Of a stretch of DNA of 64,000 nt, positions 1,244 through 64,000 are shown in pieces. The translations under genes were made by a program, and so were the position numbers. The stretch is taken from positions 1 to 64,000 of the IMG/VR virus record IMGVR_UViG_3300012983_000039; one strand, 5' to 3'. Numbering within the stretch: position 1 is the stretch's first letter; the number at the start of each line of letters is the position of its first letter. A model generated the notes under the pieces. That model did no database searches. It saw nothing but the letters and a program-made list of their open reading frames with translations, and had not been told where the DNA came from. The DNA is from a virus (lineage: Duplodnaviria; Caudoviricetes).

Positions 1244-1791
1244 CAGTGATCATAGATGTGGACAATATAATTGGAAATCTTTGCGAGGCAGTATTGTCTG
1301 TTTATAATGAAGATAGTGGAGATAGGCTAAAGATCGAAGATATAAAAACTTACTATATAGAAAACTATGTTCTGCCGCCCTATAAAGAAACTTTCTATAA
1401 CTATTTTAAAAATAAAAGAGTTTGGAAACGTATGAAATATGTAAATGGTTGTCAGGAATATATAGCTAAACTCTTTGCTGATGGACACGATATTTATTTT
1501 TGTTCAAAAACTGAAATGATTAATGCGCCCAAGAAAGAGTCTTATCTACAGAGAACCTTTCCATATATTAATATTCGTAAGAAATTAATTATCTGTCCAG
1601 ATAAAACTATGGTGCGCGGCGACATATTGATTGATGATTGCTCCGCCAATTTTGGCGGACAAACTTATTCAATAGTTTTACACTATCCTTGGAATACAGA
1701 TTTTAAAGAAAATAATATAGATAAATTTAGAGCTTTTAACTGGGAAGAAATATACGGTTTTGTTAAGCTGATTAATTTGAATAAGACTTGA
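1240..1791 (+). CDS. 5'(3')-deoxyribonucleotidase (HAD, NT5C-like)
   Basis: IDVDNII N-terminal motif, DK..V.GDILIDD, PWN. Confidence 0.8.
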   Translation: MTVIIDVDNIIGNLCEAVLSVYNEDSGDRLKIEDIKTYYIENYVLPPYKETFYNYFKNKRVWKRMKYVNGCQEYIAKLFADGHDIYFCSKTEMINAPKKESYLQRTFPYINIRKKLIICPDKTMVRGDILIDDCSANFGGQTYSIVLHYPWNTDFKENNIDKFRAFNWEEIYGFVKLINLNKT

Positions 1792-1816
1792 AAAATTTTT
1801 AATTCTGTATTATAAT
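1788..1816 (+). promoter_or_regulatory. sigma70/SigA promoter for tnpB
   Basis: TTGAAA-17 nt-TATAAT followed by AAGGAGGTG RBS. Confidence 0.75.
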
Positions 1817-1838: not shown

Positions 1839-3007
1839 GTGAAAACAATAATAATAATGATAAGATCATTTAAAGTTAGATTGTTTCCAACAAAAGAACA
1901 AGAACAAAAATTTTACCAACATATAGGCTGTTGTCGTTTTATATGGAATTATATGATAGAATTACAACAGAAGCGAAGAGAAAATAAAGAAAAACATCTC
2001 TCTAAATTTGATATGACTAAACTTTTAACTTCTTTAAAAAAAGAAGAAGAATATAAATGGTTAAAAGAAGTTTCTAACGCAAGTTTAAATATTATTTGTC
2101 ATGATTTGTCAAAAGCCTATAAAAGTTTTTTTGATAAAACAAGAGGTTATCCCAAATTTAAATCAAAGAAACATAATAATAAAAGTTTTCCAGTTAGAGC
2201 GGAAAGATTTTATTTTATGACTAATGAATTACTCAATATAGAAAAAATTGGAAAAATAAAATATAAAACTAATAAAATTTTCCAATAGGCAGAGATAGTA
2301 TTAAAGTTTTAAATACTAGGATAAAACTCATAGGTAAAAAATGGATATTAACTTTTGGAATAGAGTGTGAGAACCAAGCACTCACTCTTAATGGGAAAAT
2401 TGGGATTGATTTAGGAATTAAAGAACTTGCCTATTGTTCTTACAACGGCAAACCTCTTGTGTTTCATAATATTAATAAATCACAAAGAGTTCGTAAGTTA
2501 AAATCAAAGTTAAAACATTTACAAAGAAATGTCTCACGTAAATATGATACGAACAATAGACTTAAAGTTTACGAAGACAAATGGCACAAGTCAAATAAAA
2601 TAATTAAACTTGAAAAACAAATAGCAGAAATATATCGTAAACTCGCAAACATAAGAAACAACTATTTACATCAAACAACTCACTACTTAGTTTCACTCAA
2701 TCCTAAGCAAATCACGATTGAAGATTTGGATGTAAGTAGAATGATGAAGAACAGACATTTAAGTAGAGCAATAGCTGAACAGTGTCTTTACGAATTTCGT
2801 AGACAGATTGAATACAAATCTGAAGAACGTGGTATAAAAGTGGTAGTTGTTCCTAGATTTTACCCAAGTTCTAAAACTTGTAGCTGTTGTGGTAATTATA
2901 AAAAAGATTTAAAACTTAGTGATAGAATTTATAGATGTGAACATTGTGGCTCTGTAATTGACAGAGACTTTAACGCAGCATTAAATCTTGAAAGATATGT
3001 AGGCTAA
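1839..3007 (+). pseudogene. tnpB: TnpB RNA-guided endonuclease (IS200/IS605/IS607 family) with a -1 frameshift at about 2276-2285
   Basis: N-terminal HTH (RLFPTKEQ..GCCRFIWN). The -1 frame continues FPIGRD..GIDLGIKELA (RuvC-I), IEDL (RuvC-II), CSCC..CEHC zinc finger, DRDFNAA (RuvC-III). No tnpA nearby. Confidence 0.85.
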
Positions 3008-4742: not shown

Positions 4743-5993
4743 ATGTGTAATTGGGGAATTATTCCGTGTGATGTAGCGCCGCCACAGCATAGTAAAGTTA
4801 GAGCGAGATGTTTTACTTGTAAAAAGTGGAGTGTTTGCGAATTAAAAATTGATTATCTTAAAACTTTAAAACTAATTGAAGAAATTTTAGGCACACCAGC
4901 CGAAACATATCAGTTAATTCAACTTCCTAAAGTAGAGGGATTAGATTTTCCTTTTGCTTATAAATATATGCCGACAGATGTTAAATTTAATTTTCTTAAT
5001 AAAGAAGAATTAGGTAAGTTTTATATTTTAAAATATAGCAACATAAATAATTTTAATTTTGTTTATGATATTAAAGACTACAAAATTCTTTTTAAGGGAA
5101 TTTATGAGGGCGGCAACAACATGAAATTTAACATATCTGAGGAGGATTTGTTTAATAATATAAGTTTAAAGGAGTTTGAATTTCCAGCTAGAATTGATAC
5201 AGACGAAGGTTGGGAGTATTACTATAAACCAATTTCTTTTAGTTTAAAAGAGGAAGAGCTTGATAAAGCTAAAAATTTTTTAGATTCTATTGAAACTGGG
5301 CTTGTAAATTTAAAAATTCCATTTTTTATTAATGCGGTCTATGGAAATTATAATGGAGAAGATAGATATCCTACTTTAGAAGAAATTTTAGCGGATAATA
5401 GTTTAATTTTAAACGACTATTGCGCCGCCACCCTTAATTTACCTTTAGAAATAAAAGATAATATTGTATCTTTACAATCTAACTCTTTAATAAAAATTGA
5501 GATTGTTGATGAAGATAAAGGTCCAACTTTACTTAAAGAGAGATCAATTGAATTAAGTTTAGAAGAAACTCAAAAGGTTTTTGAACTTTTTAAGCAAAAT
5601 TCTATTAAAGATAGTTTTTCTATTTCCAATGGAGTAGATATATATTATGACTTTGAAGTTATAATGCCAGAGGAAATTAAAGAAGAAATTAAAATAGGAT
5701 TAGCTACTATAAGAGACTTAATTTTAAATGAAAACAAAGATGTAGATACAATAGACACAACTTGTTTCAAAGCAACTTTAGAGTGCCAATTTTATGAATG
5801 GGAAAAAGGACTAAGTGATGAAGATGGGTTAAAAAGGGCTTTATGTAAATATCCAAACGGTATTCCTTTAGATAGTAAAGATTTTGCCCATATAAGAACT
5901 CAACATATAGATAAACCAATTTGTTGTTATCATCCTGCGCCGCCCCACCATAAAACTAAAGGTAAAACAAGAGATGAATTAAATGAGTATTAA
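4743..5993 (+). CDS. hypothetical protein with Cys-rich termini
   Basis: 416-aa ORF with GAGGTG RBS; CFTC..C at the N-terminus, CCYHPAPPHH at the C-terminus. Confidence 0.7.
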   Translation: MCNWGIIPCDVAPPQHSKVRARCFTCKKWSVCELKIDYLKTLKLIEEILGTPAETYQLIQLPKVEGLDFPFAYKYMPTDVKFNFLNKEELGKFYILKYSNINNFNFVYDIKDYKILFKGIYEGGNNMKFNISEEDLFNNISLKEFEFPARIDTDEGWEYYYKPISFSLKEEELDKAKNFLDSIETGLVNLKIPFFINAVYGNYNGEDRYPTLEEILADNSLILNDYCAATLNLPLEIKDNIVSLQSNSLIKIEIVDEDKGPTLLKERSIELSLEETQKVFELFKQNSIKDSFSISNGVDIYYDFEVIMPEEIKEEIKIGLATIRDLILNENKDVDTIDTTCFKATLECQFYEWEKGLSDEDGLKRALCKYPNGIPLDSKDFAHIRTQHIDKPICCYHPAPPHHKTKGKTRDELNEY

Positions 5994-6393
5994 TGCGCCT
6001 TCAAAGGGTGAACAAAAGATTATAGAAATTCTTTCTAAGGCGGGTATAAAGTTTATAAGAGAATATTCTTTTAAAGATTTAAGGGGTAAAAAAGAAGCGC
6101 CATTACGATTTGATTTTGCTTTCTATTTAAATAATCAATTAATTTTATTAGACTACGATGGAATACAACATTACAATTTTACAAAGTATTTCCACAAAAA
6201 TATTTTTATTTTTAATGAGGCTAAAGAAAGAGACCGAAGAAAAAATTCCTATTGTTTAGCTCATAACATTCCCTTCTACAGAATACCTTATTGGGATTTG
6301 GATAAAATTAATATTAAAAATATATTTAATGATAACTATAAAGTGAAAACAAAATTTCACAATGATATTTTAATTAACAGGAGGGAGAAATGA
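5983..6393 (+). CDS. Vsr/DUF2726-like endonuclease
   Basis: SKGE..LRFDF..DYDGIQHY..RIPYWD; paralogous to the C-terminus of 476..1243. Confidence 0.7.
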   Translation: MSINAPSKGEQKIIEILSKAGIKFIREYSFKDLRGKKEAPLRFDFAFYLNNQLILLDYDGIQHYNFTKYFHKNIFIFNEAKERDRRKNSYCLAHNIPFYRIPYWDLDKINIKNIFNDNYKVKTKFHNDILINRREK

Positions 6394-6394
6394 G

Positions 6395-6763
6395 ATGGAT
6401 ATTCAAAACATTTTGGAAATGATAAAGCTAGTTGGTGCGGCGGCTGGAGCAATATTATCAATAATTGCTCTGATAACAGCTTTGTCTAAAAAACCAAAAC
6501 AGTGGCTTATTAATACTGTTAAAGAAGCTACAAAAGATGAATTTGAAAAAATTCATAATTTTATTGAGAAAACAGAAACTACTGACCTCAATACTTTACG
6601 CCACGAAATTACTTTAATATACGAAAAGTATAGAGATAAAAAAGAAATTCCAATGCGTTTAAGGGAAAATCTTTGTATCTTGTATGAAGACTATTCTAAG
6701 CGTGGCGGCAACAGCTATGTAAAAACAATTTATGAAGAAATGATGGATTGGAGAGTAATTTAA
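6395..6763 (+). CDS. membrane-anchored phage protein (holin-associated type)
   Basis: N-terminal hydrophobic helix, C-terminal Y..RGGNSYV. Confidence 0.5.
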   Translation: MDIQNILEMIKLVGAAAGAILSIIALITALSKKPKQWLINTVKEATKDEFEKIHNFIEKTETTDLNTLRHEITLIYEKYRDKKEIPMRLRENLCILYEDYSKRGGNSYVKTIYEEMMDWRVI

Positions 6764-6777
6764 TTTACTTTAAAAGA

Positions 6778-6819
6778 GAAGTCAAACAGCTTGACTTCTT
6801 TTTTATTTTATGTTATAAT
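6778..6819 (+). promoter_or_regulatory. fused terminator hairpin / promoter of the nrd operon
   Basis: GAAGTCAA..TTGACTTC plus T-run; TTGACT(6791)-17-TATAAT(6814) with TG. Confidence 0.75.
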
Positions 6820-6855
6820 TATACTTAGGTTAATAGAATTTTTAGGAGGAATAAT

Positions 6856-7062
6856 ATGGAATGTATATTGTATACAATTGATTGCCCAAACTGTAAAATT
6901 TTAGAAAATAAATTAAAAGAAAAAGGCATTAATTATGAAGTTTGTAAAGACATTGATATAATGGAAGAGAAAGGTTATATTCATTTGCCAATTTTATCAG
7001 TGGGCGGCACAGATTATAATTTTAATAATGCTATGAAATATATAGAAGGAGTGATAAAATGA
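6856..7062 (+). CDS. nrdH: NrdH/glutaredoxin-like redoxin
   Basis: CPNC motif, LPIL, 68 aa, directly upstream of nrdD. Confidence 0.8.
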   Translation: MECILYTIDCPNCKILENKLKEKGINYEVCKDIDIMEEKGYIHLPILSVGGTDYNFNNAMKYIEGVIK

Positions 7063-9050
7063 ATTCAAAGAAAATTGTTGACGCTTATTTAAAGCAAACA
7101 ACTTGGAAAGTTAAGGAAAATTCTAATTCGCCATATTCATATGGTGGTTTGGGCAAGCATATAGACACAGAAGTGTCGAAAGATTATTGGCTTAATACTG
7201 TTTATCCAGAACATATAAAAAAAGAATATGAGAAAGGAACTCTACATATTCATGACTTGGGTGGTTTAACTCTTTATTGTTGCGGATATAGTTTAAAATC
7301 TATTATTCAGATGGGAGTTAGAGGTATTCCTAATATACCAACTTCTGGACCAGCAAAACATTTTGACTCAATTTTAAATCAGATTTCAAATTTAATTACT
7401 GTGTTTCAAAATGAAATTATGGGTAAGTGAAAACCGTGCCCTCTCAAATTTTACCATTAATCAATGGGGTCATTTATTTGGCTAACGAGGAAGGCTAAGT
7501 CTAATGATATGCTAATCTCGTGGCAAGTTTAAGTTAATCTTAAAAAGCTGTATCGACTATTCACGTTAAGTGAAGTAAAATAACTATTGATACGTTATTT
7601 GAAATGGTTTGGCTTTAAGCTAAGAAATAGTCAGTGCCATTGGAAACAATGGATTGCCACGGCGGTGGCGTTTAGTTCTGTTGATACTTTACTTTCTCCT
7701 TTTATTAAAAGAGATAACCTAACTTATGATGAAGTAAAACAATCTCTTCAAAACTTTATTTTCTCTATAAATTCAAATTCAAGAGGCGGCGCAGAGCCAG
7801 CATTTTCAAATATTACACTTGATTTAACTCCTCCAAGAGACCTTTTAAATGAAAATGTTATGATAGGCGGCGCATTAGATAACTTTACTTATAAAGATTG
7901 CCAAAAAGAAATAGATATGTTCAATAAAGCCTTCTGTGAACTAATGATTAAGGGCGATGACGAAGGTAAACCTTTTGCCTATCCTATCCCGACTTACAAT
8001 ATCCACGAACGTTTTGATTGGGATAATCCTAACAATGAACTTCTCTGGGAAATGGCGGGAAAATATGGATATCCTTATTTTGCTAACTTTATTAATAGCG
8101 ACATGAAACCTGAAGATGCTCGTTCAATGTGTTGTAGACTTCGACTTTCTTTAAAAGAGCTTAGCCGAAGAAATGGAGGTCTGTTTGGTTCTGGTGATTC
8201 AACTGGCTCAATAGGTGTCGTTACGATTAATTTACCTCATATTGCTTATACAACAAAAGGAAATAAAGGTGAATTCTTTAAAGAGCTTAATCGAGTTCTT
8301 GAAATTGCTAAAGAAAGTCTTGAAATAAAGCGTGAATTTTTACAAAAAAACGTTATAGAAACTAATCTTGTGCCGGCATTCAATACATATGTTGGAACAT
8401 TAAGAAATCATTTCTCTACAATTGGTATAGTTTCTATGAATGAAATGTGCGAAAATTTCTTTGGAGAAGGTATAGACATTCTCACAGAAGAAGGTAAAGC
8501 TTTTAGTATAGAAGTTTCAAACTTTATAAGAGAAAAACTTTTAAAGTTCCAAGAAGAAACAGGCAACTTATATAATTACGAAGCGACACCCGCAGAGTCA
8601 ACTTGTTATCGTTTAGCATTAAAAGATAAGAAAAATTATCCAGATATAATTACAAGAGGAACAGATGACGCACCTTATTATACTAACAGTTGTCATATCC
8701 CAGTTAATAAAATTAAAACAATTCATGAAACATTTGAACATCAGGAAGATTTACAGATTTTATTTACTGGCGGCACAGTAATTCACATCTATATGAATGG
8801 CGCTATATCTGGTGAGGCAGCCAAGGATATAGTAAAAACCGTATGTAATAAGTATAAAGTTCCTTATGTAAGTATAAGTCCTTTAAATAGATACTGTCCA
8901 GAACATGGCTACGTGCCTGAAAGGGTTGATAATTGTCCTAAGTGTCAGGCTAAGCTTAAAAAATACCAGCGAATTACCGGATATTTAAGATGTGAGGATA
9001 ATTTTAATGATGGAAAGAAGGCAGAATTTCGTGAAAGAAAACAGCTTTAA
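7059..9050 (+). CDS. nrdD: anaerobic (class III) ribonucleotide reductase, spliced join(7059..7424,7662..9050), about 584 aa
   Basis: HIHDL, YCCG, splice restores NEIMG|AVAF, SMCCRL finger loop, EATPAE, YYTNS, RITGYL glycyl-radical motif; no ATP-cone. Confidence 0.93.
7425..7661 (+). mobile_element. group I intron in nrdD (237 nt, no ORF)
   Basis: P1 GGGU/GCCC with U.G; P10 ACCGU/GCGGU; P7 GACUA/UAGUC; P9 CCAUUG-GAAA-CAAUGG; P9.0 GUG/CAC; terminal G. Confidence 0.93.
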
Positions 9051-9498
9051 AATTAATTATAAATTAATAGAACATGAGAGAACTGAAGATGCCCCTTTTG
9101 TAGGGGCACTCATTTCTGCTTGTGGGTGTAATTTTAATTGCGTTAATTGTTTTAATCAAGCTGTAAAACAATTACCAACTTTAACAAGTTGCGCCGCCTC
9201 TATAATAGAAGAGGTTAAGATTAACCCCTTTAATAAAGGAATTATTTTTGGTGGATTGGAGTGGACCTTACAAGAAGAAGAACTTCTAATTCTAGCAAAA
9301 TTAGCAAAAATAAATGGTTTAAAAACAATGTTATATACAGGAAAAAATTTTGAAAATATTGAAAACTTATATAAAACAAATTTATTTGACTATATAAAAT
9401 GTGGACCATATAAAGAAGAATTAAAAAGCAATACACATTATGAATATGGTGTTAAACTTGCTTCTAGTAATCAACATATTTATAAAGGAGAAAATTAA
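8992..9498 (+). CDS. nrdG: anaerobic RNR activase (radical SAM); true start probably GTG at 9031
   Basis: CNFNCVNCFN CxxxCxxC, GGLE, LYTG, SSNQ. Confidence 0.88.
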   Translation: MRIILMMERRQNFVKENSFKINYKLIEHERTEDAPFVGALISACGCNFNCVNCFNQAVKQLPTLTSCAASIIEEVKINPFNKGIIFGGLEWTLQEEELLILAKLAKINGLKTMLYTGKNFENIENLYKTNLFDYIKCGPYKEELKSNTHYEYGVKLASSNQHIYKGEN

Positions 9499-9499
9499 A

Positions 9500-9715
9500 A
9501 TGAAGAAGAAAATAACCGATGATTTAGATTTAAAGGCTAAAATTTCTTTTGGTTTAAAAGAAAACTATCATAAATACGGTGCGCCGCACTGTCCTTGTGT
9601 TAATCCAAAATTTTATAACGAAGATACAATATGTCCTTGTAAAGCTTTTCGAGAGGAAACTCCAGTAGGAGAAAAATGTTATTGTGGACTTTATGAAAAA
9701 ATAAGTCAAGATTAG
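9500..9715 (+). CDS. ferredoxin:thioredoxin (disulfide) reductase catalytic-subunit-like protein
   Basis: CPC..CPC..CYCGLY signature; AAGGAG RBS supports ATG at 9500. Confidence 0.8.
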   Translation: MKKKITDDLDLKAKISFGLKENYHKYGAPHCPCVNPKFYNEDTICPCKAFREETPVGEKCYCGLYEKISQD

Positions 9716-9747
9716 TTCTTGACTTCTTTTTATTTTTATGCTATAAT
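9703..9747 (+). promoter_or_regulatory. fused terminator hairpin / promoter
   Basis: AAGTCAAGA..TCTTGACTT plus T-run; TTGACT(9719)-17-TATAAT(9742) with TG. Confidence 0.75.
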
Positions 9748-9780
9748 TTTAATAGAAATTTTAAAAGAAAGGTGCTTTAA

Positions 9781-10185
9781 ATGAAAAGAAGAATTAAAAA
9801 CGTTGTAAAAAACTTAGTTAAAGAAAACCAAAGGGTTCACGATTATAAAAGTCCTTATGGTGTAAAATTTTGGAATAAAATTTTAAAAGACTCTAAGGCA
9901 TATGCTAAAAACCACAAAGTTTTTGAAAAAAATGTGGCTTTAGTTATAGAGAAAGATTATAACAGATATAACCAACTTCTTGAAAATGAGGATATAAAAG
10001 ATGAACAAAGAGAAGTTTTAAAAGAAAAAATATTTCAACTTTCTTTCTTTATGGAAAAGGGTTGGGCAGAAATGTTTGATGAGGAGGCAAGACTCAAAGA
10101 AGAATTTCGAGAAATAATTTGGAAAAATAGAGTTGAGTTTGACCCATATAATATAAAAAAGGAGGCTTTACATGAAGAAAAGTAA
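9781..10185 (+). CDS. hypothetical protein
   Basis: 134-aa ORF with RBS behind a promoter. Confidence 0.65.
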   Translation: MKRRIKNVVKNLVKENQRVHDYKSPYGVKFWNKILKDSKAYAKNHKVFEKNVALVIEKDYNRYNQLLENEDIKDEQREVLKEKIFQLSFFMEKGWAEMFDEEARLKEEFREIIWKNRVEFDPYNIKKEALHEEK

Positions 10186-12486
10186 TTATTCTGCTGAAGA
10201 TATAGTGTCTTTAAGTGCCGGACGTGCTTTTAGAGAAAAGATAGGAATGTATTTATCAGCAGATAGACAAGAAGCAATAAACTTAGGATTAAGAGAATTA
10301 ATAGTTAATGTTCAAGATGAGTTTGAAGTGTATAAACCACAAAATCCTCTTTTAAAAATTACTTTAAATTCTGAAACAAAAGAAATATCTGTTGAAGATA
10401 ATATGAGAGGTATTCCTGTAGGGGTTAGAGCTGATGGAATGAACTCTTTAACTGCCGCCTTTATGATACCACATAGTGGTGGTAAGCATCAGGAAGGAGC
10501 ATATGTAAGTTCAGTCGGAATTAACGGTTAACCTGAGCCGTTGTAAAAAAGTTTGAATTGCTGGAAACCTCTTAGAGCCAAATAAACTACAACATAGAAA
10601 GCGTTTTTATGTGAATGTTTAAAAATTATTTGGATTGGACAATCAGCAGCGAAGTATCTAATAAGTGCCTCTTTGGAGGGTAATATGATTTGGAAATTAA
10701 CTTGTGGCGTAGAAGTATTGATTGATGAAGATGATTATAATAAAATTGATAAAACTGGTTGGTACTTATTAGATGAACGTTCAACGACTATTGAAAACGA
10801 ATTAATTAATAATACAAATAGTGATATAGAACAACTATTAGGTATTAATTTAAAAGAATTAATCGTGAGTAAAGTAGGCTCAAGCGAGTCGAAGTGGACT
10901 TAGAAAAGATATAGTCTGAACTTATATGGAAACATATAGCAGCACTTAAAAGTGCGGGATTAAATTAGCGATTTAATCCGAACATTTTGGAAGGGAATAA
11001 AGTAGTTAACCATACAGCAAAATGGTTAGAAGTATATGTTAAAAGAGATGGTAATATTTATTACCAAAAATTTACTTCTACTTCCGAGGGAGCTACTCCT
11101 GAGTGTGAAGTTTTAATTAAAGGAAAAACAAAAGAAACTGGAACTTTAATTACTTATGTGCCAGACCCTGAAGTATATGGTGATATATTTATCCACTATG
11201 AAAATTTAAGAAATATGTTAAGAGAGATGTCTTATTTTACAAAAGGATTAAAAATCTCACTTATAATTGACGGAGAAGAAGAAACATTTTACTCAAAAAA
11301 TGGATTAATAGATGGATTAAAAAGTGATTTTAGCTTATCTAAACCATTTTCTTATTTTTATGAAACTTCTGATTGTAAGGTTGAACTTGCTTTACAGTGG
11401 GTTTCTAAAAAAGGACAAATCAAAGGCTATGCTAATGGTCTTTATATGAGAGATGGCGGCGCCTTTATAAGTGGTTTTAAAACATCTTTAACAAGAACAT
11501 TTAATTCATTAGCCAATTCTAGTTTTTCTGGTGAACAAATCCGAAATACTCTTGATGGTTTTGTTTCAGTTAAAGTAAAAGTTGGACAGTTCTCAAACCA
11601 AGCAAAAACAGCTTTGGCAAATCCAGAAGCTAGAACCGCCACATCTACCGCAATAACACAGTGTTTAAAGGAATTTTATCAAACTCATAAAAATGAATTT
11701 ATTCAAGTTTCAGAACTTCTTAAAAAGCTAGAAAGAGCAGAGAGGGCGGCAGATAGAGCAAGAGAGGCTGTTCTCAATCATACTAAAGAAGTAAATAAGG
11801 AACTTAAAAAGAAAACTGTTTTAGCTGGAAAATTAGCAGATTGTAGATATCATGATGAAAAATCACAGCTTTTAATCGTGGAAGGATTATCTGCCTTGGG
11901 TGGAATAGTAAAATCAAGAAATAGCGACTATACTGCGGCCATACCCCTGACGGGTAAGATACAAAATGTTTTCAAAAATTCAGAAGATAAGCTCTTAGAA
12001 AATCAAGTTTTAAAGGATTTGCATACAGCTATAGGCTCTGGATTTGGAGATAGTTTCAACATAAAAAAATTAAGATATGGTAGAATAGTTTTTGTTTGCG
12101 ATGCCGATGAAGATGGATATTCTATTATGTGTTTATTGCTTGCTTTTATGTATAAATACTATCCAGAATTAATTCGTTTAGGTAAGGTTTATTGGGGACA
12201 GACTCCTTTGTTTAAAGTTGTAGCAAAAAAAGAAGTTTATTATGCTTATTCTGAATCAGAATTAAAGGAACTTCCAAAAGGCGACATTACTAGAGCAAAG
12301 GGAATAGGCGAGTTAGAGCCAGAAGACTTTAAAGCAACTCTATTTTCTGAAAAAGGACGTTATACACCTTTTACATTAGAAGATGGTGAGAAAGCAGCGG
12401 AATATTTTGATATTTTATTGGGTGAAAATATAACGGCGAGAAAGAAATATATAAGTGAAAATGCTGATTTTGATGCGTTTGACTAA
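10172..12486 (+). CDS. gyrB: type IIA topoisomerase subunit B, spliced join(10172..10528,10990..12486), about 617 aa
   Basis: ELIVN..DE, EDNMRGIP, HSGGK, splice restores VGING|EGNKVVN, TOPRIM VEGLSA and DADEDG, KGIGE. Confidence 0.92.
10529..10989 (+). mobile_element. group I intron in gyrB (461 nt) with a homing endonuclease remnant (about 10686-10780)
   Basis: P1 AACGGU/GCCGUU; P motif GAAUUGCUGGAAA, Q motif AAUCAGCAG, R motif UUCAACGACUA, S motif AAGAUAUAGUCU; terminal G; GGAGG RBS plus MIWKLTCGVEVLIDEDDY fragment. Confidence 0.92.
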
Positions 12487-12513
12487 AATTTATTTAACAA
12501 AGGAGCGAATTAA

Positions 12514-14898: not shown

Positions 14899-14902
14899 AT
14901 AG

Positions 14903-14931
14903 TTGACACTTTATTAAAATTATGTTATAAT
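14903..14931 (+). promoter_or_regulatory. consensus promoter
   Basis: TTGACA-17-TATAAT with TG. Confidence 0.8.
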
Positions 14932-14946
14932 AAAGGAGTAATAAAA

Positions 14947-15321
14947 ATGAAAAATAAAATTAATATTGAAAATAAGGAGTTATTTATCTCTGCGATAAAT
15001 AACTACCTAGATTTAATTTATGGAATTAAAGAGAAGATGGATGAGGCAGTTGCCCTCCAAAAAGAAACTGGAGAAATTGTTATTCCAGAAGATGATAAAC
15101 TTAAAAAATTTTTTGAGTCTACTATAGAAACTTCTGGAATTTATGAAGATATTAGAAAAAAACTTATTGAAGAAAAAGAATTGAGTTTATCAGAACTTCT
15201 TTTAATTAAAAATGTTCTTATCTTTATAAAAGAACAATGGATTAAACAAAATAAGAAATTAAAAGAAGCAATTGATTTAATTGAAGATTTTCTTAATAAG
15301 TTTGAAAATTTAAATAGTTGA
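14947..15321 (+). CDS. hypothetical protein
   Basis: 124-aa helical ORF with AAGGAG RBS. Confidence 0.7.
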   Translation: MKNKINIENKELFISAINNYLDLIYGIKEKMDEAVALQKETGEIVIPEDDKLKKFFESTIETSGIYEDIRKKLIEEKELSLSELLLIKNVLIFIKEQWIKQNKKLKEAIDLIEDFLNKFENLNS

Positions 15322-15625
15322 CAAATTTAAGTAAATATGATATAATATTTATAGAAATTAAATTTAAAAAGTTTTAAAAAACTTTAAGAAAATAAGATTT
15401 TAAAATAGTTGACAAATTTAAATAAATATGATATAATATTTACAGAAAATAAAATCTAAAAGTTTAAAATTTTTAAATAAATTAAAGTTTTAAAGTAGTT
15501 GACAAATTCAAGTAAATATGATATAATATTTACAGAAATAAAATTTTAATTTTAAGTTAATTTTAAATAAATTAAAGTTTTAAAGTAGTTGACGAATTCA
15601 ACTAAATATGATATAATATTAATAG
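15312..15625 (+). repeat. four tandem ~90-bp repeats, each carrying a consensus extended promoter
   Basis: TAGTTGAC(A/G)AATT(T/C)AA..AAATATGATATAATATT with TTGAC at 15318, 15409, 15499 and 15589. Confidence 0.9.
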
Positions 15626-15693
15626 TTAATAAATAGCTAAGAGCTATTTAAAATAAAATTAAAAAATTTTTAAAACAATTGGAGGAAATTAAA

Positions 15694-15960: not shown

Positions 15961-15976
15961 TTAAAAAAATTTTTTA

Positions 15977-16006
15977 AAAGTGAAAAGGTTAATGCCTTTT
16001 CACTTT
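15977..16006 (+). terminator. intrinsic terminator
   Basis: AAAGTGAAAAGG-TTAATG-CCTTTTCACTTT. Confidence 0.7.
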
Positions 16007-16056
16007 AACTTTTCTTAAACTTAAAACTTTTTTTAAAAATTGGAGGAAATAATAAT

Positions 16057-46120: not shown

Positions 46121-46131
46121 ATTTTTCCTCC

Positions 46132-52938: not shown

Positions 52939-52950
52939 TTGTTTACCTCC

Positions 52951-54996: not shown

Positions 54997-55013
54997 ATTC
55001 TCACCTCATATAA

Positions 55014-55048
55014 AAAGAAGCATAGAGCTTTTTACTCTATGCTTTTCT
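55014..55048 (-). terminator. hairpin between tape measure and Dit
   Basis: AAGCATAGAG..CTCTATGCTT. Confidence 0.6.
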
Positions 55049-55052
55049 TAAA

Positions 55053-58000
55053 TTAATTTAAAATAATTGTTCGACCTATTGATTTAGATACATCAACAAT
55101 ATCTTTCTTAACTCTTTCTACCATATTGTCTATATCATAATCCGATGTTATTTTGTCTACATTTATGTGAATTTCTATAGATGTATCTCCAATATTTGTC
55201 GACATATTTCCTTTATCAAAGTTAGATTTAAATATAGGTAAATTAGACAACAACTTTGCCGCCGCACCTATACGAGCCGTATCCTCAGAATTAAGGAAAG
55301 CTTCTGGTTTATTAGGCGTTCCATCTACCCAAGCTGGTCCAGTATAATCAACTAGTCCACCATTTTTATAGGCAATAAATTTATCTTGTTTTACATCTAG
55401 TAAACGTAATGTATCCAAGCCCGGCTTAGCAATTTTAGCCTTTTTAAGTTTTTCAATTTCATCAAGAACTTGTTGATAAGTAGAATATTCTGATATACTA
55501 CCATCACTCCATATTATTCCGTGAGCAAATTTTGAACTATTACGCTCAGATACAGTTGAATTATCAACAGTTTCCTTTACATATCCGCCATAACTCTTAT
55601 TTTTACTTTTATAAGCCTCCAAAAAAGCTTGAGCAGCGTCTTTAGAACCAAAAGATTTTCCAATAGCTGATGGTTGAGAATTTGCTGTTTGAGCTATAAA
55701 CACTTTATAAGCTTGTGTAAGAGATTTTCCCGCAATGGTAGCATCAACTAAATCTTTAGAAATTCCATAAGTCTTAGTTAAATCATTGGGGCTATATCCC
55801 ATATCAAGCATTATCTTAATTGAGTTTTGCGCCGCCATAATAGTGCTTTCTTTAGCATATTCAACTAGCCTTTCTAAAGCAACGGCAGTAGCATCAGCGC
55901 TATTAACTCTTGACTTAGCCAATTCTTTTTCTTTTTCTTGCCAGTCTTTATAAGCTTCATCTACTTCTTTTTCGCCTTCTCTTAATGCTTCAAGTGCTTC
56001 ATCTCTACCTTCAAGGGCTTTTTCTATTAACTCATTAGCTTTTCTTTCGGCATCAGCTAAAATCTGTGTACCAGCGTTTTCAGCATTATTAACAAGTTCA
56101 TTATAGATTTGTTCAGTAGCATTTGCCAAGTCTTGTTGATTAAAGGTAAAATTAGTTTGTTGTAAGCCCATATAATTAATTAAGTCATTATATTGATTTT
56201 TCAAATCATCAATATATTTTTGACTTTGAGCAGAAGTCATATCCTGTGCGGCTGGGTCATTTTGTGTGTACCAATTCTTCATATCCTCAAAGGAAGTCCA
56301 AGAGGACATAATATTTTCTGCCCATTTAGCGAAATACTGAGTTTGTTCAGAAACTTCTTCCATATATTCAATTTCCGCATCTCTAGCTTCCTTTTGTTTT
56401 TCATAAAGTTCCTTTAATGAATCAATTATTGAGTCAACTTCTTCATCTAAGATTTCTGTGCGACTTTCTTCTACTTCTTTTTCTAAAGATTGGATATCTT
56501 TTCTTCTACTACCAGAAGTATCTCTTTGTAATAAAGCAAGTTTCTTTTCTTTTGTAGCAAGCTCTTCATAACTTTTTTCTCTATCTCTTAATTCTCTTTG
56601 TTTTTCAATTGCCGCCTCAAGAGCATCAAGATATCTATTATCTTCTTCTTCTAAAGCGTCATACTTATCTTTCGTAATATCAATTTCTTCTTCTGCTTTT
56701 TCTTTTAATATATCAATTAATCCATTTTGAACGGCAATAAAGTTATCAAGATTTTCTTTATAAAATTCTTCTCTTTCTTTTTCAATTTCTTTTATTTCTT
56801 TTAAATTCTCTTGTTTCTTTTTTCTATATTCTTCATATAATCCATATTCTGTTTCAAAAGCTTTTCTTATTTCATCATTTCTAGCCATTTCTTGATAAGC
56901 AAAGTTTATTGTAGCTAATCCATTTTCATCGAAAGAAATATAATTGCCATAGCTTTGTTCCAGAGTGTTTCTAATATTTAGTAAAGCTGAGTCTAAAACT
57001 TTGTTTTCTGCCGAGATATGTGCTGTTTTATTTTGATAAGAGGTATTAAGAGAACTAAATAATTGTTTAGAAGATGAAATAGTTTCAATTTCTTCTAACT
57101 GTTCTTTAGTTTGTTCCAACTGGTTGTTTAAGTTTTCTAAGCGAGCTGTATAGTTGATTAACCTATCTAAACCACTTGTGAAATCATCTGAACCATATTG
57201 AGCTTCGTGAAGTTCTTTTTCCGCTTCTTTTAATTTTTTGTTTAAATCTTCAAGTTCTTCTTTTGCTTTTTCGTATTTATCTTTTGCTTTATCAACATCA
57301 TCTACTATATCTTCTGTTGTATCTTTAATTTCCTCTAGTGCGGCGGCAATAGCATTAATATCAAGAAGTTCTTCTTTGCCTAAACTTTCTCTAGCAAATT
57401 CTGTGGCGGCAATAGTATTAGTAATTTGTAATTCTAATTCTTTTAGTTCAACTCTATATTGATTAAGTTCTTTGTTTTGTTCTTCATTTAACGATTTTTC
57501 GGCTTGTAAACGTTCAATGTTTTCTTTTAAAACTACTGTTCGAGCTTTATCATTTTTAAGACGCTCTTCATTCATTTTAATTTGTTCTCTAAAGGCTTCG
57601 CCGCCTACAGCCATTGAATCGAAATAAGCTTCAAGTATCTTTCCACTATCTAACTGTATACCGTCAATTCCATATTTTATTGCGTCTTCAAAACCTTTTT
57701 CTAATAAAAAGTTAATTGACTCAGAAGATATAAAGCCTTTTTCTATTTGTTCTTCGTAAGCTCCAATAATATCTTTCCAATTTTCACTGGCGTCTTTTCG
57801 TAATTCAGCTAAGTCTGTAGAAAGTTGTTTTATACCTACTGTAGAGGTAATAGCTAAATTACTTCCATAGCCGGCAACAGTATTAATAAAGTCTTTCCAA
57901 ATTTGTTCTGCTTGTTCTGTAGTATGACTAATTTCTTCCATCGAATCAATATACTGTTCTTTAAATTTCTTTAAAGACAATACATCTAAATTCTCAAGAT

Positions 58001-61000
58001 TAATTCCCAATAAGAAAGAACTTTCTTGGGCAGTTAAATTTTTATCTTGAATAAATCCTTCTAATGCTTTTCCATATTCTTCTCTTAAAGTTTCCGGCAT
58101 AGCATCAATAGCATTTTTAAAAATTGTTAATTGTTCTGTTGTCCAATTTTCAAAAAACTTTTTGCTATTTTCTTTAGAACGATTATCTTCAAAAGATATT
58201 GGACCATTCATATCTGGATAGAGATATTGATACAATCCATTTTTTCTTGTTCCATTTTCTTGTAAAACACCAAAGAATATAGTATCCCAATTCTTTACTT
58301 GTTCTTCTATATAAGTTTTGGCATTATCTTCGTTTTCTGTTCCGGCAAAAGTTTTGAGGAAAGTTTGTCCTATTTGTCCTTCTAAATCAGCTTTTGTATA
58401 AGTTGGTAATTTTTCCGCAAATTCAGTTATAGTTAAACGTTGGAGAGGATTAAGTGCTTCAATTAATTCTTGTCCTTCTTTTGATTTATAATATGCCTCA
58501 GCCGCAGATTTATAATCCGATTGGAGTTTTTCGATATCCTTTTTAGCTTTTCTCTTCTTTTCGTAAGTTTCAGCTTCGTAGCCGGCATATCCAAGAATTT
58601 CTCGTTGTTCTGTAGTTAAATCTGAATACGCTAAAAGATTATTGCCCCATCCATTTGTACTTATTTTTCCTAAATGTTTACCTTTAATCTCATTGTCTGC
58701 CGCCTCAGATATAACAAAATTAACTATTTCTTCTTGGGCATCTGTAAGACTTGTTAAAGCAGTAGCAAGCGCCGCCTTTTTTAAAGCTTCAAATTCTTTT
58801 GTTTCTATTTCCGTCTGTTTTTCATTTCTCTTAATTTCATCTTCTACGTATCCATTAGCTGCTCGCCAACCCTCGTGTCCGGGGTCATCAATTTTATAAA
58901 GGAGGTCAATCCAACCTTCTTTATTGAGATTTTCGAGATTGTCTACTCCAAAATAGCTGGCAATTTTTTCTACTTCTTCTTTATTAATTTTTTGTAAAGC
59001 AAAACCTAAAGTCCACGCATCATTTTCCAACATCATTCTTATTTCTGGAATAGAAGAGTCAGATGTAAAGTCTAAATTATTTAGTTTTTTAATATCTTTA
59101 TTCCTATTTTCTTTTTCTAATTTAGCTACTTCAATTTCTTTATCATATATTGTAGAAGTAGTAATAAAACTTTCTAAAGCTTTTTCTTTAGCCAACTGTT
59201 TAGAAGATTTAAGAATTTGTTCCCACAAATCAGTTTGAATTTGAAGTTCTCCAGTCATTTCATTATAATAATTAACGATTTCTGGATACTCGTCTTTTAT
59301 TTCTTTAATTAAATCATTATATCTTTCTTGTTCTTCAGAACTTAAAACTTGTTTACTATTTAACTCATTAAATTCTTTCTTAAGTTCTTCTGCCTTTTCT
59401 ATAGCTTCTTTTTCTGTTTTAATTAAATTCTCAAGCTCATTTTTCTTTGAAGTTAGTTCTTCAATTTCTTTATTAAGTTGATTAATTTGACGATTAAGTT
59501 TGCCTATTTGCATCTCCTTAATCGCATTAGATGCGGCTTTGATACCAGCAGCTAAAGCACCGATGGCTAAGCTAATTCCCATAGCTACGCCGCCAGCCTT
59601 TAAGCTTGAGAATAAAGCTGTCAACTTACTAGATGAAGCATCTAATACTGTTTTGAAAGTATTAACAATTTGTGGAACGCTAGAGACCAATCCAGTTATG
59701 ATTGTATCTTTTAATACTTCCCCCGGATTATTTCTCAATACATAAGAAGTAATAGCACTAGTTAACCCCATAGAGAAAGAAGTTCCAACAGCAACACCCA
59801 TGGCTGAATAGTTGGCTTTCTTAACAAGATCTTTTGAAAGGTCTTTTGATTGTAATTTAAGGGCTTCTTCATAACTTTCTGGAGTATAGCCTCTTTTTGC
59901 TAAAAATCTAGCCAAATGATTATTTACATAATCAGAAGATTTGTTTAAAGATTGAAGTTTTTGTGAAAGAGCTGTATATTCAATAGAAACTTTTCTTATA
60001 TCGGCAATAGGTCTTGTGATATCAATTGCCATAGTCATTGGTGTTCCTATTAAATTACGAGCCTCTATTATCTTATTATTTACTGCTTGAATTTGTGCTT
60101 CTATTTCTTGTGTTGATAAATTTAAATTAGTATTAATACCTAAAAATGAACCAAGTTTAGTTTGAGAAACTTTTTTCATTATAATATTGCGTAAAGTTGT
60201 AAAAGCTCCTAATACTGTTGAAGAGGCATCTCTCATTCCTTTTGCGAACTGTGTAATCGCAGTTCTTCCTAAAGTAAACCACATTACCGCAAAGCCAGTA
60301 AAATTAAGTCCACTTAAATCACCGAGTTTATTTACAAGATTATCCAAGAAAACAAGAACATCTTTGTAAACTTCACTATTGAGAAAGCTTGTTCTTAATT
60401 GTTCCCAACTATTTTTTAACTGGTTTAATCTAAATTCAACAGTATCTTGATATTTTACGAATTGTTGTTCTGCCTTTCCTGAAGCTTCGCTCGCAACTTC
60501 AATTAATTCAGTTGTTCTTTCGTAGTTATCCATTAAGGCAAGAAATCTACTTTGCTCGTTTATCCAAATAAGTTTCCCTATTTGACAGACTATATCTTCA
60601 CTAAAAAGTGTCTGGCACTTCGAGAATTTAACTTCTCTACAATTAGTCGTTGAACCTTATACTTAATCTTCAATATTTTTCCAATAAAAGCCGCAACTAC
60701 AATAACCTTTTTTTATTGCCGCTTGAATAGACTGTGGCTTTACTCCCATATGTCTCGCCGCATCAGCATTATTTTCAAATATTTGAATTAGATTTCCTTC
60801 TTTATCATAACAAGCAGTTCTTTTAAATTTAAAAGTTTTAGTTTCATAAATAGCTTTTAAAACATTTTCTTGGTTTGTAATATTTTCTAAATTACTAAGT
60901 CTATTATCAAGTTTATTACCATTAATATGATTAATAATTTTTTGTTCAGTTCCAACCCAAGTTTCCCAAACTAATTTATGTCCTCTCAAACTATGGCTTT

Positions 61001-64000
61001 TGTTATCAAAAGTTAAGTTAAACTCTCGATAACCAGCATCGGTTATTTTCCCTTTTAGCATTTTTTCTGTTTTAGCATTTTTTACTCGTCCTAAATTAGA
61101 AACCATATAAACAGTATTTCTAAAAGTTCTCCATTCTTCCTGAGATAAATCATAATCAAGATAATCTGTATGGTCTTTAAAATTTAATTTTTTGTTAATT
61201 TTTAAATTATTTTCCGATGGACTTACCCATTGTAAATTTTCAATTTTATTATTAAGTCTATTTCCGTCTATATGATGAACATATTCTAAATTTTTAGGAT
61301 TTTCAATAAAAGCTTCAGCAATTAATCTATGTTGACTTCGAGCATATTTTTTATTCTTCCATCTTAAGTCAAACCATCTATATCCATTTCTAATAGTGCC
61401 TTTGTAATATCTTCCGGTTTTTTCATTCATTACTCTACCATCATCATAAATTCTATATGTTGTTTCCTGCTGTTCAATAAAAATTTTTTTATACATATTC
61501 TCACCTCTCTTAAAAAGAGGAAATCTAATATAAGTATCTTGGCTGCGGATTACCCAATCTTTTCTCTTTTTACCATACCGAAGTAATTACTTTCGCCATA
61601 TAATATGTTGCCATTTATATTTGGTAAGAAAAGCTCTAAGGAAGTCCCCGCAATTCACCAGATTTTTGTTTTCTTGTATTATTAGGCTACAAGAGGTAGT
61701 GGGTTAGCATTTAGCCTACTACCTGCCGATTGAGTGGCAATGTATCTTTGAGCGTTTCGGGACAATTTAGACCAGTTCTTATTTAATTCAATAAATACAT
61801 CGTCCAAATCTCGGAATTGTCCATTAGTATCTTTCAATTGAATTCCGACAGATTTTAAAGCTTCGTCTACTCGGTTGTAGTCCATTGCTTCAATTTCTTC
61901 TTCACTTAAATCAGATACATTTTCTTTAAGCTCTGTGAATCTCAAATTTTGTTACGATCATTCGCTACATGACCTCTTAATATTTCTATTAAGTTCAGAC
62001 TATATCTTCATCTTTCGATGTTGGGCACTTCGAAACGCTTGTTTCTACATAATAGTCGTTGAACCTTGAGGATAAAAATTCGGGAATATTTTTTAAATCC
62101 CAATAAGGAATTTCTATTAAGATAATATTATTAGCCTCGCAAAAATCTCTTTTCTTCTTATCTCTTGTAATTTTAGTTGACTTGGGCATTTTATCCTCCT
62201 TGGCTGCTGATTGTCCATTAAATCAAACTTAGGTATATATTTTCCATGTTATATTTACGATATAATTTAGGAAAATGATGTTCTTCCATATTCTATCCCC
62301 TTATTTATTTCTACTTTCGCAACCTTTTCTTTTATTATATCATTTTTTTAGATAAAAGTCAAAGGTATAAGGGGCTTTAGGATGTCCCAGCAATTCACCC
62401 AATTTTGCATCGCCAAATTCACATCTCAGCGATTATACTTTTCATCGCAGTTCCTAGGTTTTCTGGAGCCTCCTGAGTTGTTTCAATCATTTGAGTAAGG
62501 AAAGCTGCGGTATTTTCAAAGGACATACCAGCTGAATAAGCAATTGATGATGTTTTACTCATAGCGTAAGCTATACCTTGAACATCCGCTGCCGCCTTAG
62601 CTGCGAGTTCTGAGTAAACGTCGGTAACTCTCTGTCCTTCGTCCATTTCAAGTTTAAATCCTCTTAAAGCAGAGGTCATTTGTGAAGTTGCTTCTTTAAA
62701 GTCTAGTCCGGCTAAAGTAGCCAATTTCATTGTTTCTTCTGTAAGTTTAAAAGTTTCATCTATTTCCAAGCCCTGTTGAACGTAAAGTCCAGATGCTTGA
62801 ATAACAGAAATTGTGGTTTGTCCAAGACGATTAGCTATCTCAGCATATCGGTCATATCTATTCCACATATCTTTGATTGTTAAATCGGTTACCATCGCTA
62901 CTTGAGCAAAAGCTTTATCAAGTGTCTGTATATCATTAAAAGTTGAAGTAATAACTCTTCTTAACAACCTAAATCCATTAGCCAAAGATAAAGTATATTC
63001 AGCATAACGTTTTAAATAAGAAAAACTATTATCTAAATCTCTTTGCTTGTTAACCAAGTCAGAAGTTTCTCTATTTAATAAAGTTGTGCTTTCTCTTTGT
63101 GTATTAATTAAATTGTCAATACTTCTTAAACTGTTCTGTTCTCTATTTAATAAAGCTAGAATACCTTTGATTTGCTGACTTGTCTGATTTACATTGTTAT
63201 TTTCTCTTTCAACTTTTTGTTGCTGTTGATTTACTAGATTAAAAGCATTTAAAATTTCTGGGGAATTTAAAATCTGTTCTCTACTAATTCTTTTATCTTG
63301 GGCTTTTGTTAAACTACCTTTTGCGGCACTTAAACTTGCTTTAAGACCATCTAAATCTTGTTTAGCTCCACTGATTGCCGCCTTCACTGTTTTAAATTGG
63401 TTTGCCATATTGGCGGTTAAACCTTTTTCATTTTTTATTTCAATATTCATTTTCTTTAAAGCTTCGGTAAAGTTCTTATAAGCTATAGTAGCATCTTTAA
63501 CTTGTTTACCTTGAGCATCAAAGAAACTGTCAGCATAGGCTAATTTAACTTGTTCAAGTTGCTGAGTAGTTATATTTTCTCCAGTGGTGGTATTCCTAAA
63601 ACTTGTAGTTTTATAGTTATTTAAAGGTAAAATTTGTTTACGTCTTTCAGACAACTCTTTCTTAGCCAAATCATAAGATTGTTGTTTTCTTGCTACTTCG
63701 GCATCTAAGCCGGCAAGAATTTTAGATTGAACTTCTTTTAAAGACTTCGCATCTACAATTTGTTTAGCATAGGTTTCTCTTGTTTCCCGAGAAACCTTTT
63801 GTTGTGCTAAAAAATTTTTAATTTGTTCTTTTTGTTCATCCTTGGTTTTCTTTAATAATCGTTCTTGTTCTTTTAAAGCTGTGTTTGCCTTGTCTAAATC
63901 GTTTTCTAAATTCTTCGTGTTTAAATCTTGTAATTTTAAAGAAATTTTAGAAAGGTTAGAAAAGAGTTTATCAACTTCTTTTTCATAGTTAGTAAAATCT
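55053..64000 (-). CDS. tail tape measure protein, spliced join(>64000..62428,61942..61714,60556..55053), 5' end outside the window
   Basis: TP901-type core; junctions SIIA|RFTELK and AGSR(Q)QSRFLALM; long coiled coil; C-terminal GGLVDYTGPAWVDG; frame open to the window edge. Confidence 0.9.
60557..61713 (-). mobile_element. group I intron 2 in tape measure gene (C-A pair at the 5' splice site)
   Basis: GUGAAUUGCGGGGA, AAUCCGCAG, UUCAACGACUA, AAGAUAUAGUCU; P10 UGCU/AGCA; terminal G; carries an HNH ORF. Confidence 0.88.
60663..61496 (-). CDS. intron-encoded HNH homing endonuclease (two NUMOD4/HNH units plus NUMOD1-like tail)
   Basis: HRLIAEAF..VHHIDGNRLNN..NLQW; INHINGNKLDN..NLE. Confidence 0.88.
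   Translation of the reverse strand: MYKKIFIEQQETTYRIYDDGRVMNEKTGRYYKGTIRNGYRWFDLRWKNKKYARSQHRLIAEAFIENPKNLEYVHHIDGNRLNNKIENLQWVSPSENNLKINKKLNFKDHTDYLDYDLSQEEWRTFRNTVYMVSNLGRVKNAKTEKMLKGKITDAGYREFNLTFDNKSHSLRGHKLVWETWVGTEQKIINHINGNKLDNRLSNLENITNQENVLKAIYETKTFKFKRTACYDKEGNLIQIFENNADAARHMGVKPQSIQAAIKKGYCSCGFYWKNIED
61995..62189 (-). pseudogene. internally deleted Vsr/DUF2726-like homing endonuclease remnant
   Basis: AAGGAGG RBS; RDKKKRDFC..NIILIEIPYWD matches the C-terminus of 476..1243. Confidence 0.65.
62334..62362 (-). promoter_or_regulatory. consensus promoter inside the tape measure intron
   Basis: TTGACT-17-TATAAT with TG on the minus strand. Confidence 0.7.

Follow-up and report, generated by a model that had tools for sequence, protein, structure and literature searches.

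In a tailed phage (Duplodnaviria; Caudoviricetes) represented by the IMG/VR viral contig IMGVR_UViG_3300012983_000039, a lineage-specific force that operates on duplex DNA maintains words made entirely of G and C, typified by the hexamer GCCGCC, its complement GGCGGC and the palindrome GCCGGC, at one to two copies per kb. This force could be selection for copy number, or biased repair which regenerates the words. The stretch analyzed here (the window) is the first 64 kb (positions 1 to 64,000) of the 91,305-bp contig (G000), which is about 56% complete by CheckV; the window has a GC content of 30.0%. A total of 101 open reading frames (ORFs), called greedily, cover 91% of the contig, and 68 of them lie in the window.

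The window holds 38 copies of GCCGCC, 35 of GGCGGC and 17 of GCCGGC, against mononucleotide expectations of 0.62, 0.82 and 0.72, and runs of 6-10 G/C bases are 3- to 30-fold over-frequent. Among the other all-GC hexamers GGGCCC, CCCGGG, GCGCGC and CGGCCG have 0 copies each and GGCGCC has 1. In the window ORFs the three words occur 26, 43 and 16 times, compared with 3.0, 5.4 and 1.8 times after shuffling of synonymous codons and 3.1, 5.7 and 2.2 times in a shuffle that preserves both amino acids and dinucleotides; 200 shuffles of these ORFs never went above 13. In the genes of the whole contig 35, 62 and 32 copies stand against 2-7 in shuffles of three types (synonymous within genes, synonymous across genes and codon permutation), with z scores of 16-28 over the shuffle types. 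GCCGCC and GGCGGC together amount to 105 copies in the contig versus 2.3 by composition, and to 97 in genes versus 11 by synonymous shuffle, GCCGGC reaches 32 versus 2.9 in shuffles, and the pentamer GCSGC (S being G or C) is found 153 times in genes versus about 44-45 times in synonymous shuffles. The resulting density is 1.15 hexamers and 1.8 GCSGC per kb. DNA outside the ORFs (8.8 kb) has 8 hexamers, a density equal to that of the genes and not higher. All six coordinates quoted for these words in the original prediction hold the stated hexamers, and the excess of GCCGCC/GGCGGC and GCCGGC that it claimed for an AT-rich genome is borne out by the counts and the shuffles. The observation it named as fatal to its claim, namely counts matching those of codon- and amino-acid-preserving shuffles, was looked for, and such shuffles fall far short. 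The hexamer excess is real, and codon usage, amino-acid content and dinucleotide bias do not account for it.

Enrichment over shuffles ranges from 2-24x and extends to all frames and both strands; for GGCGGC it is 4.9x in frame 0, 23x in frame 1 and 15x in frame 2, the rare frame being the highest. About 90% of the copies nevertheless lie in frames 0 and 2 (Gly-Gly, Ala-Ala, Ala-Gly; x-Ala-Ala, Pro-Pro, Pro-Ala), and the independence from reading frame originally claimed accordingly holds for the enrichment factor and fails for the raw counts. Rare codons for Arg, Pro, Ala and Gly, among them CGG and CGC for Arg and CCG for Pro, cluster in the words, in agreement with the earlier observation that the words draw on GC-rich codons otherwise rare here. 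Their effect extends to protein composition: Ala-Ala dipeptides are at 1.74x the compositional expectation both here and in a complete motif-bearing relative (G001; 157,483 bp with terminal repeats, 160 copies of GCCGCC/GGCGGC), versus 0.88x in motif-less relatives, and Gly-Gly is at 1.22x and 1.11x in the two motif-bearing genomes versus 0.87x in the motif-less ones. The shuffles, the enrichment in all frames, the rare codons, the inflation of Ala-Ala and the presence of the words, though not at conserved positions, in a relative with saturated synonymous sites (see below) together support the proposal of a force on the word as DNA rather than on the encoded protein. On the coding strand GGCGGC and GCCGCC occur in a ratio of 62:35, which is predicted by codon content, the observed-to-expected ratios (O/E) being 8.5 and 9.0, and 6.0x and 5.8x in G001. 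Counts on the plus strand flip at about 42.7 kb together with gene direction, orientation tracking only the coding strand and GC skew. With O/E equal on the strands and orientation following gene direction, the signal is therefore strand-symmetric.

Comparison of the two genomes defines the words more closely. In both, the enriched GC-only words are built on GCSGC or on its half CGGC/GCCG and are flanked by G/C, and in G001 GGCGGC, GCCGCC, GGCCGC and GCGGCC are all at 4-11x in those frames where they are expected at all. If pentamers are classed by their pattern of S and W (A or T) positions, the all-S class alone is enriched, 2.25x here and 1.82x in G001. Maximal GC runs with GCSGC are at 4-9x, versus 0.1-1.2x for those with GGG/CCC or without the core, the exception among the core-less runs being the GCCGGC family in the present phage (2.7x). 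A general role as GC clamps was ruled out by the low values for runs lacking GCSGC; the signal is sequence-specific and essentially symmetric. Here GGCC and CGCG are avoided, with GGCCGC/GCGGCC and CGGCCG absent and GGCGGC/GCCGCC, GCGCCGCC (23) and GCCGGC (32) present. In G001 CCGG, GCGC and CGCG are avoided, with GCCGGC and GCGCCG absent and GGCGGC/GCCGCC, GGCCGC/GCGGCC (103) and CGGCCG (34) present. Each genome hence lacks those members of the family that hold its own avoided tetramers. GCCGCC is preceded by a pyrimidine in 99 of the 105 copies of the contig and in 37 of the 38 of the window, a preference that is absent in G001 and arises in part because of the ban on GGCC. The unit is thus not GCCGCC alone: it is a quasi-palindromic family built on GCSGC with at least one G/C flank, whose ideal form is GGCSGCC. 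The octamer GCGCCGCC or its complement GGCGGCGC is present in 23 copies in the whole contig. Strand symmetry and the quasi-palindromic nature of the family argue against a signal read on one strand.

The genome is also marked by strong avoidance of restriction-type words, about ten altogether. Relative to shuffles, TGCA is found 25 versus 171 times, GATC 27 versus 150, GTAC 16 versus 125, CCWGG 0 versus 27 and GCWGC 26 versus 88; CATG, GGCC, CGCG, GAWTC, GTNAC, TCTAGA and several 6-mers are also depleted. As GCW-GCN is forbidden, Ala-Ala must be written GCS-GCN, and 89 of the 112 Ala-Ala pairs indeed open with GCC or GCG. Under a constrained shuffle, in which a swap was kept only if no avoided word exceeded its observed count, GCSGC climbs from about 45 to about 95 as against the 153 observed, and GCCGCC, GGCGGC and GCCGGC reach 5-11, 8-13 and 1-3 as against 35, 62 and 32. 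The excess of the pentamer here is hence due in part to compensation for the avoidance of GCWGC and TGCA. Relatives with 67% topoisomerase identity and 30.4% GC (loci L009-L011) show no TGCA deficit and have GCWGC above the base-composition expectation; they carry 18-21 hexamers per 23 kb (about 0.9 per kb), with GCCGGC at 0. The 157-kb G001 too, which is free of those avoidances, has the same words. Restriction avoidance as the main cause is largely refuted by the constrained shuffles together with these relatives: it shapes the word family and does not create it.

Orthologous proteins of this phage and G001 (57 reciprocal-best pairs; 18,174 aligned columns, 50% identity) allow the fate of individual sites to be followed, across a distance at which four-fold degenerate sites are saturated (44% identical). 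Of 111 sites 92 could be aligned: the hexamer is kept at 7, 6 of them Gly-Gly, the amino acids are kept with other codons at 15, and the amino acids differ at 70. Two strains of the G001 relative that are about 99% identical (the collections hold only two haplotype groups) differ by loss of 9.3% of GCSGC, compared with 9.5-10% for other GC-rich pentamers, GCWGC being the least stable. Variability between them is highest at the center of GCNGC (5/64; a weak difference from other G/C sites, P=0.035). One-step neighbors of GCSGC are not depleted, except for GCWGC with W at the center; GCWGC is down and GCSGC up in both genomes, in G001 only in the synonymous Ala-Ala frame. A signature of very-short-patch-type repair was considered and rejected, in view of these undepleted neighbors and of the failure to find a Vsr gene. 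Mobile ORFs hold 4 GC runs versus 11.2 expected (P=0.013), so that the proposed check of endonuclease genes came out as predicted, and the widest gaps between sites fall on the IS605 TnpB, the helicase intein and the HNH, GIY-YIG and LAGLIDADG genes. Taken together, these data describe words whose number and not position is maintained, which are written into tolerant protein positions and which accumulate with residence time.

The distribution of the trait among relatives is patchy. This phage, the G001 group and L037 (a 13-kb contig with 40% DnaE identity; GCSGC 2.9x, hexamers 4.9x) have a strong excess of the hexamers, and an equally distant clade (L012-L016; 166-198 kb) has 0 hexamers; a mild shift, with GCSGC at 1.3-2.4x and GCWGC at 0.5-0.8x, is group-wide. 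The lineage of this phage is present in the IMG metagenomes 3300035520, 3300035502 and 3300043080. G001 encodes a 5-methylcytosine (m5C) methyltransferase (117323-118249 of G001) that resembles M.HhaI, its best solved relative, along its whole length, and GCGC is avoided in G001. The homologues of this enzyme in cultured phages have at most 37% full-length identity, and no m5C methyltransferase is present in the motif-less clade, two complete genomes included. Loci with 54-96% identical methyltransferases have topoisomerases 33-37% identical to that of this phage, and are as distant from it as the motif-less clade. Measured against base composition, enrichment is 5.5-11x in seven loci with close methyltransferase homologues versus 0-2x in 20 others; with a codon-aware expectation and in regions far from the gene, GCSGC falls to 1.0-2.4x in those genomes. 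In light of the codon-aware expectations and the far regions we no longer count the methyltransferase association as support. One 181-kb viral contig (G007) has 32% GC near its methyltransferase (163-181 kb, L050) and 42.5% at 60-80 kb (L129), with differing word statistics; the contig is either strongly mosaic in composition or chimerically assembled. Our search of the literature for GCCGCC in phages returned nothing.

The closest parallels lie in cyanobacteria. Those lacking the highly iterated palindrome HIP1 carry alternates, namely GCsGC in Cyanothece PCC 7822, rCCGGy (GCCGGC) in Oscillatoria PCC 10802 and GGCGCC in Calothrix PCC 7103, which are 100% GC, number 1,000-2,000 per Mb and each have cognate m5C methyltransferases; a methylation-directed repair ratchet was proposed to generate such iterated palindromes (Elhai 2015, PMC4390886). 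For HIP1 itself, GCGATCGC, selection has been argued from the conservation of sites (Xu et al. 2018, PMC5861425). The phage shares with the alternates the very words (a GCSGC core, GCCGGC), their 100% GC content, their palindromic or quasi-palindromic form, a density of about 1-2 per kb, location in genes in all frames, an excess beyond codon usage and lineage specificity. Like the iterated palindromes, its words are over-represented by an order of magnitude or more (105 versus 2.3 in the contig; 97 versus 11 in genes) and are found at 1-2 per kb inside ORFs in all frames. Periodicity on a large scale (10-90 kb) is a further trait of the iterated palindromes; in the phage, whose genome has only about 160 kb, short-range spacing is near Poisson. 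Unlike the alternates, they belong to a phage lineage of 30% GC and not to a cyanobacterial chromosome, require a G/C flank for strong enrichment, and form a family whose membership is visibly pruned by the restriction avoidance of each genome; and while the alternates have cognate methyltransferases, here the M.HhaI-like enzyme of G001 would be a candidate. A further likeness is to the uptake signal sequences (USS) and DNA uptake sequences (DUS) of Pasteurellaceae and Neisseriaceae, which are iterated words in coding DNA that occupy tolerant positions in versatile frames, reshape peptide content and lack positional conservation across species. These, however, are 9-12 nt long and spread in naturally competent bacteria through biased uptake and recombination, a route that is not known for a phage. 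The avoidance of palindromes typical of virulent phages is strong here too, and limits the word family to certain members; avoidance, however, removes words, whereas here words are added well beyond compensation.

The explanation that we rank first, tentatively and as short of probable, is that the words are a mark read on duplex DNA, equivalent in a phage to the iterated palindromes of cyanobacteria. The reader would most likely be a symmetric, duplex-binding enzyme of the restriction-modification type, and a cytosine methyltransferase is the leading candidate. On this reading the density would be set either by a requirement for one mark per 0.5-1 kb or by biased repair coupled to methylation. 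The sites are gained and lost fast, are written mostly as Ala-Ala, Gly-Gly, Ala-Gly and Pro-Ala, and are scarce in recently arrived mobile DNA. In a more specific form, which we regard as rather doubtful, the words would be a genome-wide identity mark of the phage lineage, read or modified by a lineage-specific duplex-binding enzyme, perhaps a methyltransferase. About one word per gene might then serve to tell own from host DNA in protection, choice of the repair strand or host shut-off, and proteins would be rewritten under strong selection for a dense mark. Several observations weigh against a duplex-read mark. No protein reading the words was identified. The sites are not positionally conserved between the phage and its relative (7 of 92 shared), unlike those of HIP1; their spacing is near Poisson (coefficient of variation 0.87-1.04), with no sign of selection for even coverage; and GGCGCC, which would be a member under a purely symmetric GSCGSC rule, is not enriched. 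No m5C methyltransferase is present in the 91 kb of the contig; the part of the genome that corresponds to the gene's location in the relative lies outside these 91 kb. In three large phages with 54-57% identical methyltransferases the hexamers are at 0.5-1.1x in six of eight loci, the other two having 2.3x (z 2.3) and 3.8x (z 2.2), and a genome without the methyltransferase reaches 3.1x in one region: the enzyme is neither clearly sufficient nor clearly necessary. Nor was a Vsr-type repair gene found.

Foremost among the alternatives, though in our estimate unlikely, is a Chi-like signal: a host helicase-nuclease of the AddAB/RecBCD type would recognize GGCGGC, or a flanked GCGGC, in single-stranded DNA, so that degradation is attenuated and recombinational repair promoted, both orientations being needed because breaks expose both directions. 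The word has a GCGG core in common with the Chi sequences of Firmicutes (AGCGG in Bacillus subtilis, GAAGCGG in Staphylococcus aureus). As with Chi, the word is short, G-rich and GC-only, dense through selection on DNA, and free in position with density being what matters; its patchiness among equally distant relatives is that of a host- or lineage-specific signal, and the many avoided restriction-type words imply that double-strand breaks are a real threat. Lambdoid phages, moreover, can strongly over-represent the Chi of their host (Bobay 2013, PMC3784561). Yet Chi is asymmetric and oriented, and in lambdoids is concentrated between ori and pac, while phages that encode a recombinase avoid it (PMC3784561). 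The present family is symmetric and evenly spread, its enriched set including four hexamers in G001 and the palindromes GCCGGC and CGGCCG, with equal O/E on the strands and an orientation accounted for by coding strand and GC skew alone. The phage has its own Sak4-like recombinase, SSB and RecJ-like nuclease, an equipment that goes with absence of Chi (PMC3784561), and an AddB/RecB-type nuclease domain was not found in it or in G001. Among 301 sampled Bacillota genomes (Clostridia left out) none combines a phage-like GGCGGC density with a high ratio to control, the ratio of the word to its reversed control being 0.6-2.8. Likewise unlikely, and placed by us after the Chi-like signal, is a functionless context-specific bias of mutation or repair, arising in replication or in heteroduplexes between co-infecting phages, as for instance mismatch correction towards G:C in a GC-rich context or conversion of GCWGC to GCSGC. 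Such a bias would be consistent with the lack of positional conservation, a loss rate equal to that of other GC-rich words, the near-Poisson spacing, the opposite shifts of GCWGC and GCSGC in both genomes (in G001 confined to the synonymous Ala-Ala frame), the variability of the GCNGC center (5/64) and the scarcity in new mobile DNA, which fits slow accumulation; Elhai's model is of the same kind (PMC4390886). Against it, the other one-step neighbors of GCSGC are not depleted, no gene for Vsr or the like was found, non-coding density is no higher than genic, and equally AT-rich relatives are without the effect; such a bias must, furthermore, change amino acids at most sites and double the frequency of Ala-Ala.

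The two remaining alternatives appear far less probable. A physical or replicative role, as GC clamps in an AT-rich duplex or as start sites of a phage DnaG-type primase that needs a stable GC-rich primer, we consider very unlikely. The phage does have its own Toprim primase, DnaB-like helicase and DnaE-type polymerase, and one word per 0.5-1 kb is on the scale of Okazaki fragments; by nearest-neighbor values the enriched words also have the most stable stacking steps that avoidance allows. However, stability alone is not the criterion, with GC-only runs that lack GCSGC, including those with GGG/CCC, not being enriched; the absence of strand bias beyond coding composition speaks against a lagging-strand signal, spacing is irregular, and equally AT-rich relatives lack the words. 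Least probable of all is that the words are a by-product of restriction avoidance or of a codon-pair or translational preference, with GCS-GCN being forced and Gly-Gly avoiding GGA-GG. This would agree with the strong avoidance of GCWGC, TGCA, CCWGG and others, the predominance of GCC and GCG at the start of Ala-Ala pairs, and the rise of GCSGC to about 95 of 153 in constrained shuffles. The same shuffles leave the hexamers at 1-13, which largely refutes it as the main cause; besides, enrichment is largest in frames without synonymous compensation, relatives with neither TGCA nor general GCWGC avoidance carry the same hexamers, and rare Arg and Pro codons are concentrated in the words.

Short palindromes are something that phages are known to purge rather than to build up; here a GC-only quasi-palindrome stands 5-10 times above all coding-aware expectations, its upkeep in a genome of 30% GC carrying a measurable cost in protein sequence. 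The words coincide with the iterated palindromes of cyanobacteria, which are themselves unexplained. To find the reader of such words, a small phage that has relatives near and far, trait-bearing and trait-less, could be a much more tractable system than a cyanobacterial chromosome, and it could settle the choice between selection and repair drive. As a signature of lineage or host, the word family could help in assigning hosts. A further caution is that in such phages DNA-level forces shape the statistics of codon usage and dipeptides.

Coordinates in the window of the word families, two individual copies and the motif-free stretches
Feature	Coordinates	Strand	Remarks
GCCGCC/GGCGGC, 73 dispersed copies (38 + 35)	1374..63382	both	about 1.1 per kb, genic and intergenic
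GCCGGC palindrome, 17 copies, mostly YGCCGGCA	8372..63714		absent in the relative, which avoids CCGG
8-mer GCGCCGCC/GGCGGCGC, 16 copies	4776..58776		commonest long island form; about 0.03 expected in the window
GGC-GGC as Gly-Gly	5109..5114	+	frame 0 of ORF 4743-5993; the relative has Asp-Lys (GATAAG)
GCCGCC as xxG-CCG-CCx (Ala-Pro-Pro)	4778..4783	+	among the 7 sites with the hexamer kept in the relative
Motif-free, IS605-type TnpB	1839..3007	+	inside a 2.0-kb gap between GC runs (1614-3632)
Motif-free, LAGLIDADG intein part of DnaB-like helicase gene	23737..25838	+	
Motif-free, covers HNH endonuclease ORF 29980-30843	29447..31297	+	
Motif-free, longest (3.5 kb)	32622..36083	+	GIY-YIG and LAGLIDADG ORFs, surrounding insert, split polymerase region

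Several non-coding copies of the words sit in repeated intergenic elements beyond the window (contig 85400-85790 and 89200-90560). Here a repeat of about 30 nt that ends in GGGCGGC adjoins a Shine-Dalgarno sequence (contig 85423 and 85701), the word-bearing repeat TAACGGTGGGCGGCG is present at contig 85727 and 85766, and further copies lie inside palindromes of the TCTAGGACCAC type at contig 89222 and 90536.

The phage is without a close cultured relative, the top identity to a cultured phage being 36% (topoisomerase II). Its replication module encodes topoisomerase II, NrdD/NrdG, an ATP-dependent ligase, an intein-bearing DnaB-like helicase, a Toprim primase, a split DnaE-type polymerase, a RecJ-like nuclease, a Sak4-like AAA_24 recombinase and PhoH; SSB and several homing endonucleases are also encoded. 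The tail module, on the minus strand, comprises Dit, an M23 peptidase and proteins of 1,826 and 1,883 residues. The phage uses the standard genetic code, and the window has 0 tRNAs; tRNAs for the GC-rich codons were looked for and not found. G001, on the other hand, reads TAG as sense, which raises its coding density from 0.81 to 0.89 and without which its tail proteins of 1,9xx residues are not whole; only a tRNA-Gln(TTG) and one odd tRNA were called in it, with no obvious TAG suppressor among the calls. Among large AT-rich phages, TAG as sense also fits better in L012-L016, L052 and L053, and TGA as sense in L055 and L093.

With respect to mobile elements, the IS605-type TnpB is contained in two ORFs, 1839-2288 with the helix-turn-helix part and 2459-3007 with the RuvC/zinc part, and its best homologues (53-54% identity) are found in rumen metagenome-assembled genomes of several phyla (Selenomonadaceae, Synergistaceae). 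Downstream of the split gene is an Rfam match to the RAGATH-18 RNA (3050-3110, 54 bits), a class of RNA found alongside IS605-type TnpB genes. The DnaB-like helicase ORF (23075-25423) has an intein with a LAGLIDADG/Hom_end domain at about residues 350-520; in PHROGs the label 'terminase large subunit' is given to parts of it, apparently an artefact of family naming. The 13-mer CGGGGAAGCCTAA occurs at 25449, 32233 and 35531, one copy having G at the last-but-two A; the three copies adjoin endonuclease ORFs within the split primase and polymerase region, and the 13-mer looks like the conserved core of inserted, intron-like elements. At the gathering threshold Rfam detects no group I intron in the window. 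Finally, a weakly supported Tsp45I-like endonuclease ORF (20672-21253) adjoins an N6-methylase-like ORF (21254-22258); Tsp45I cuts GTSAC, and GTNAC words are depleted in the genome that carries this ORF.

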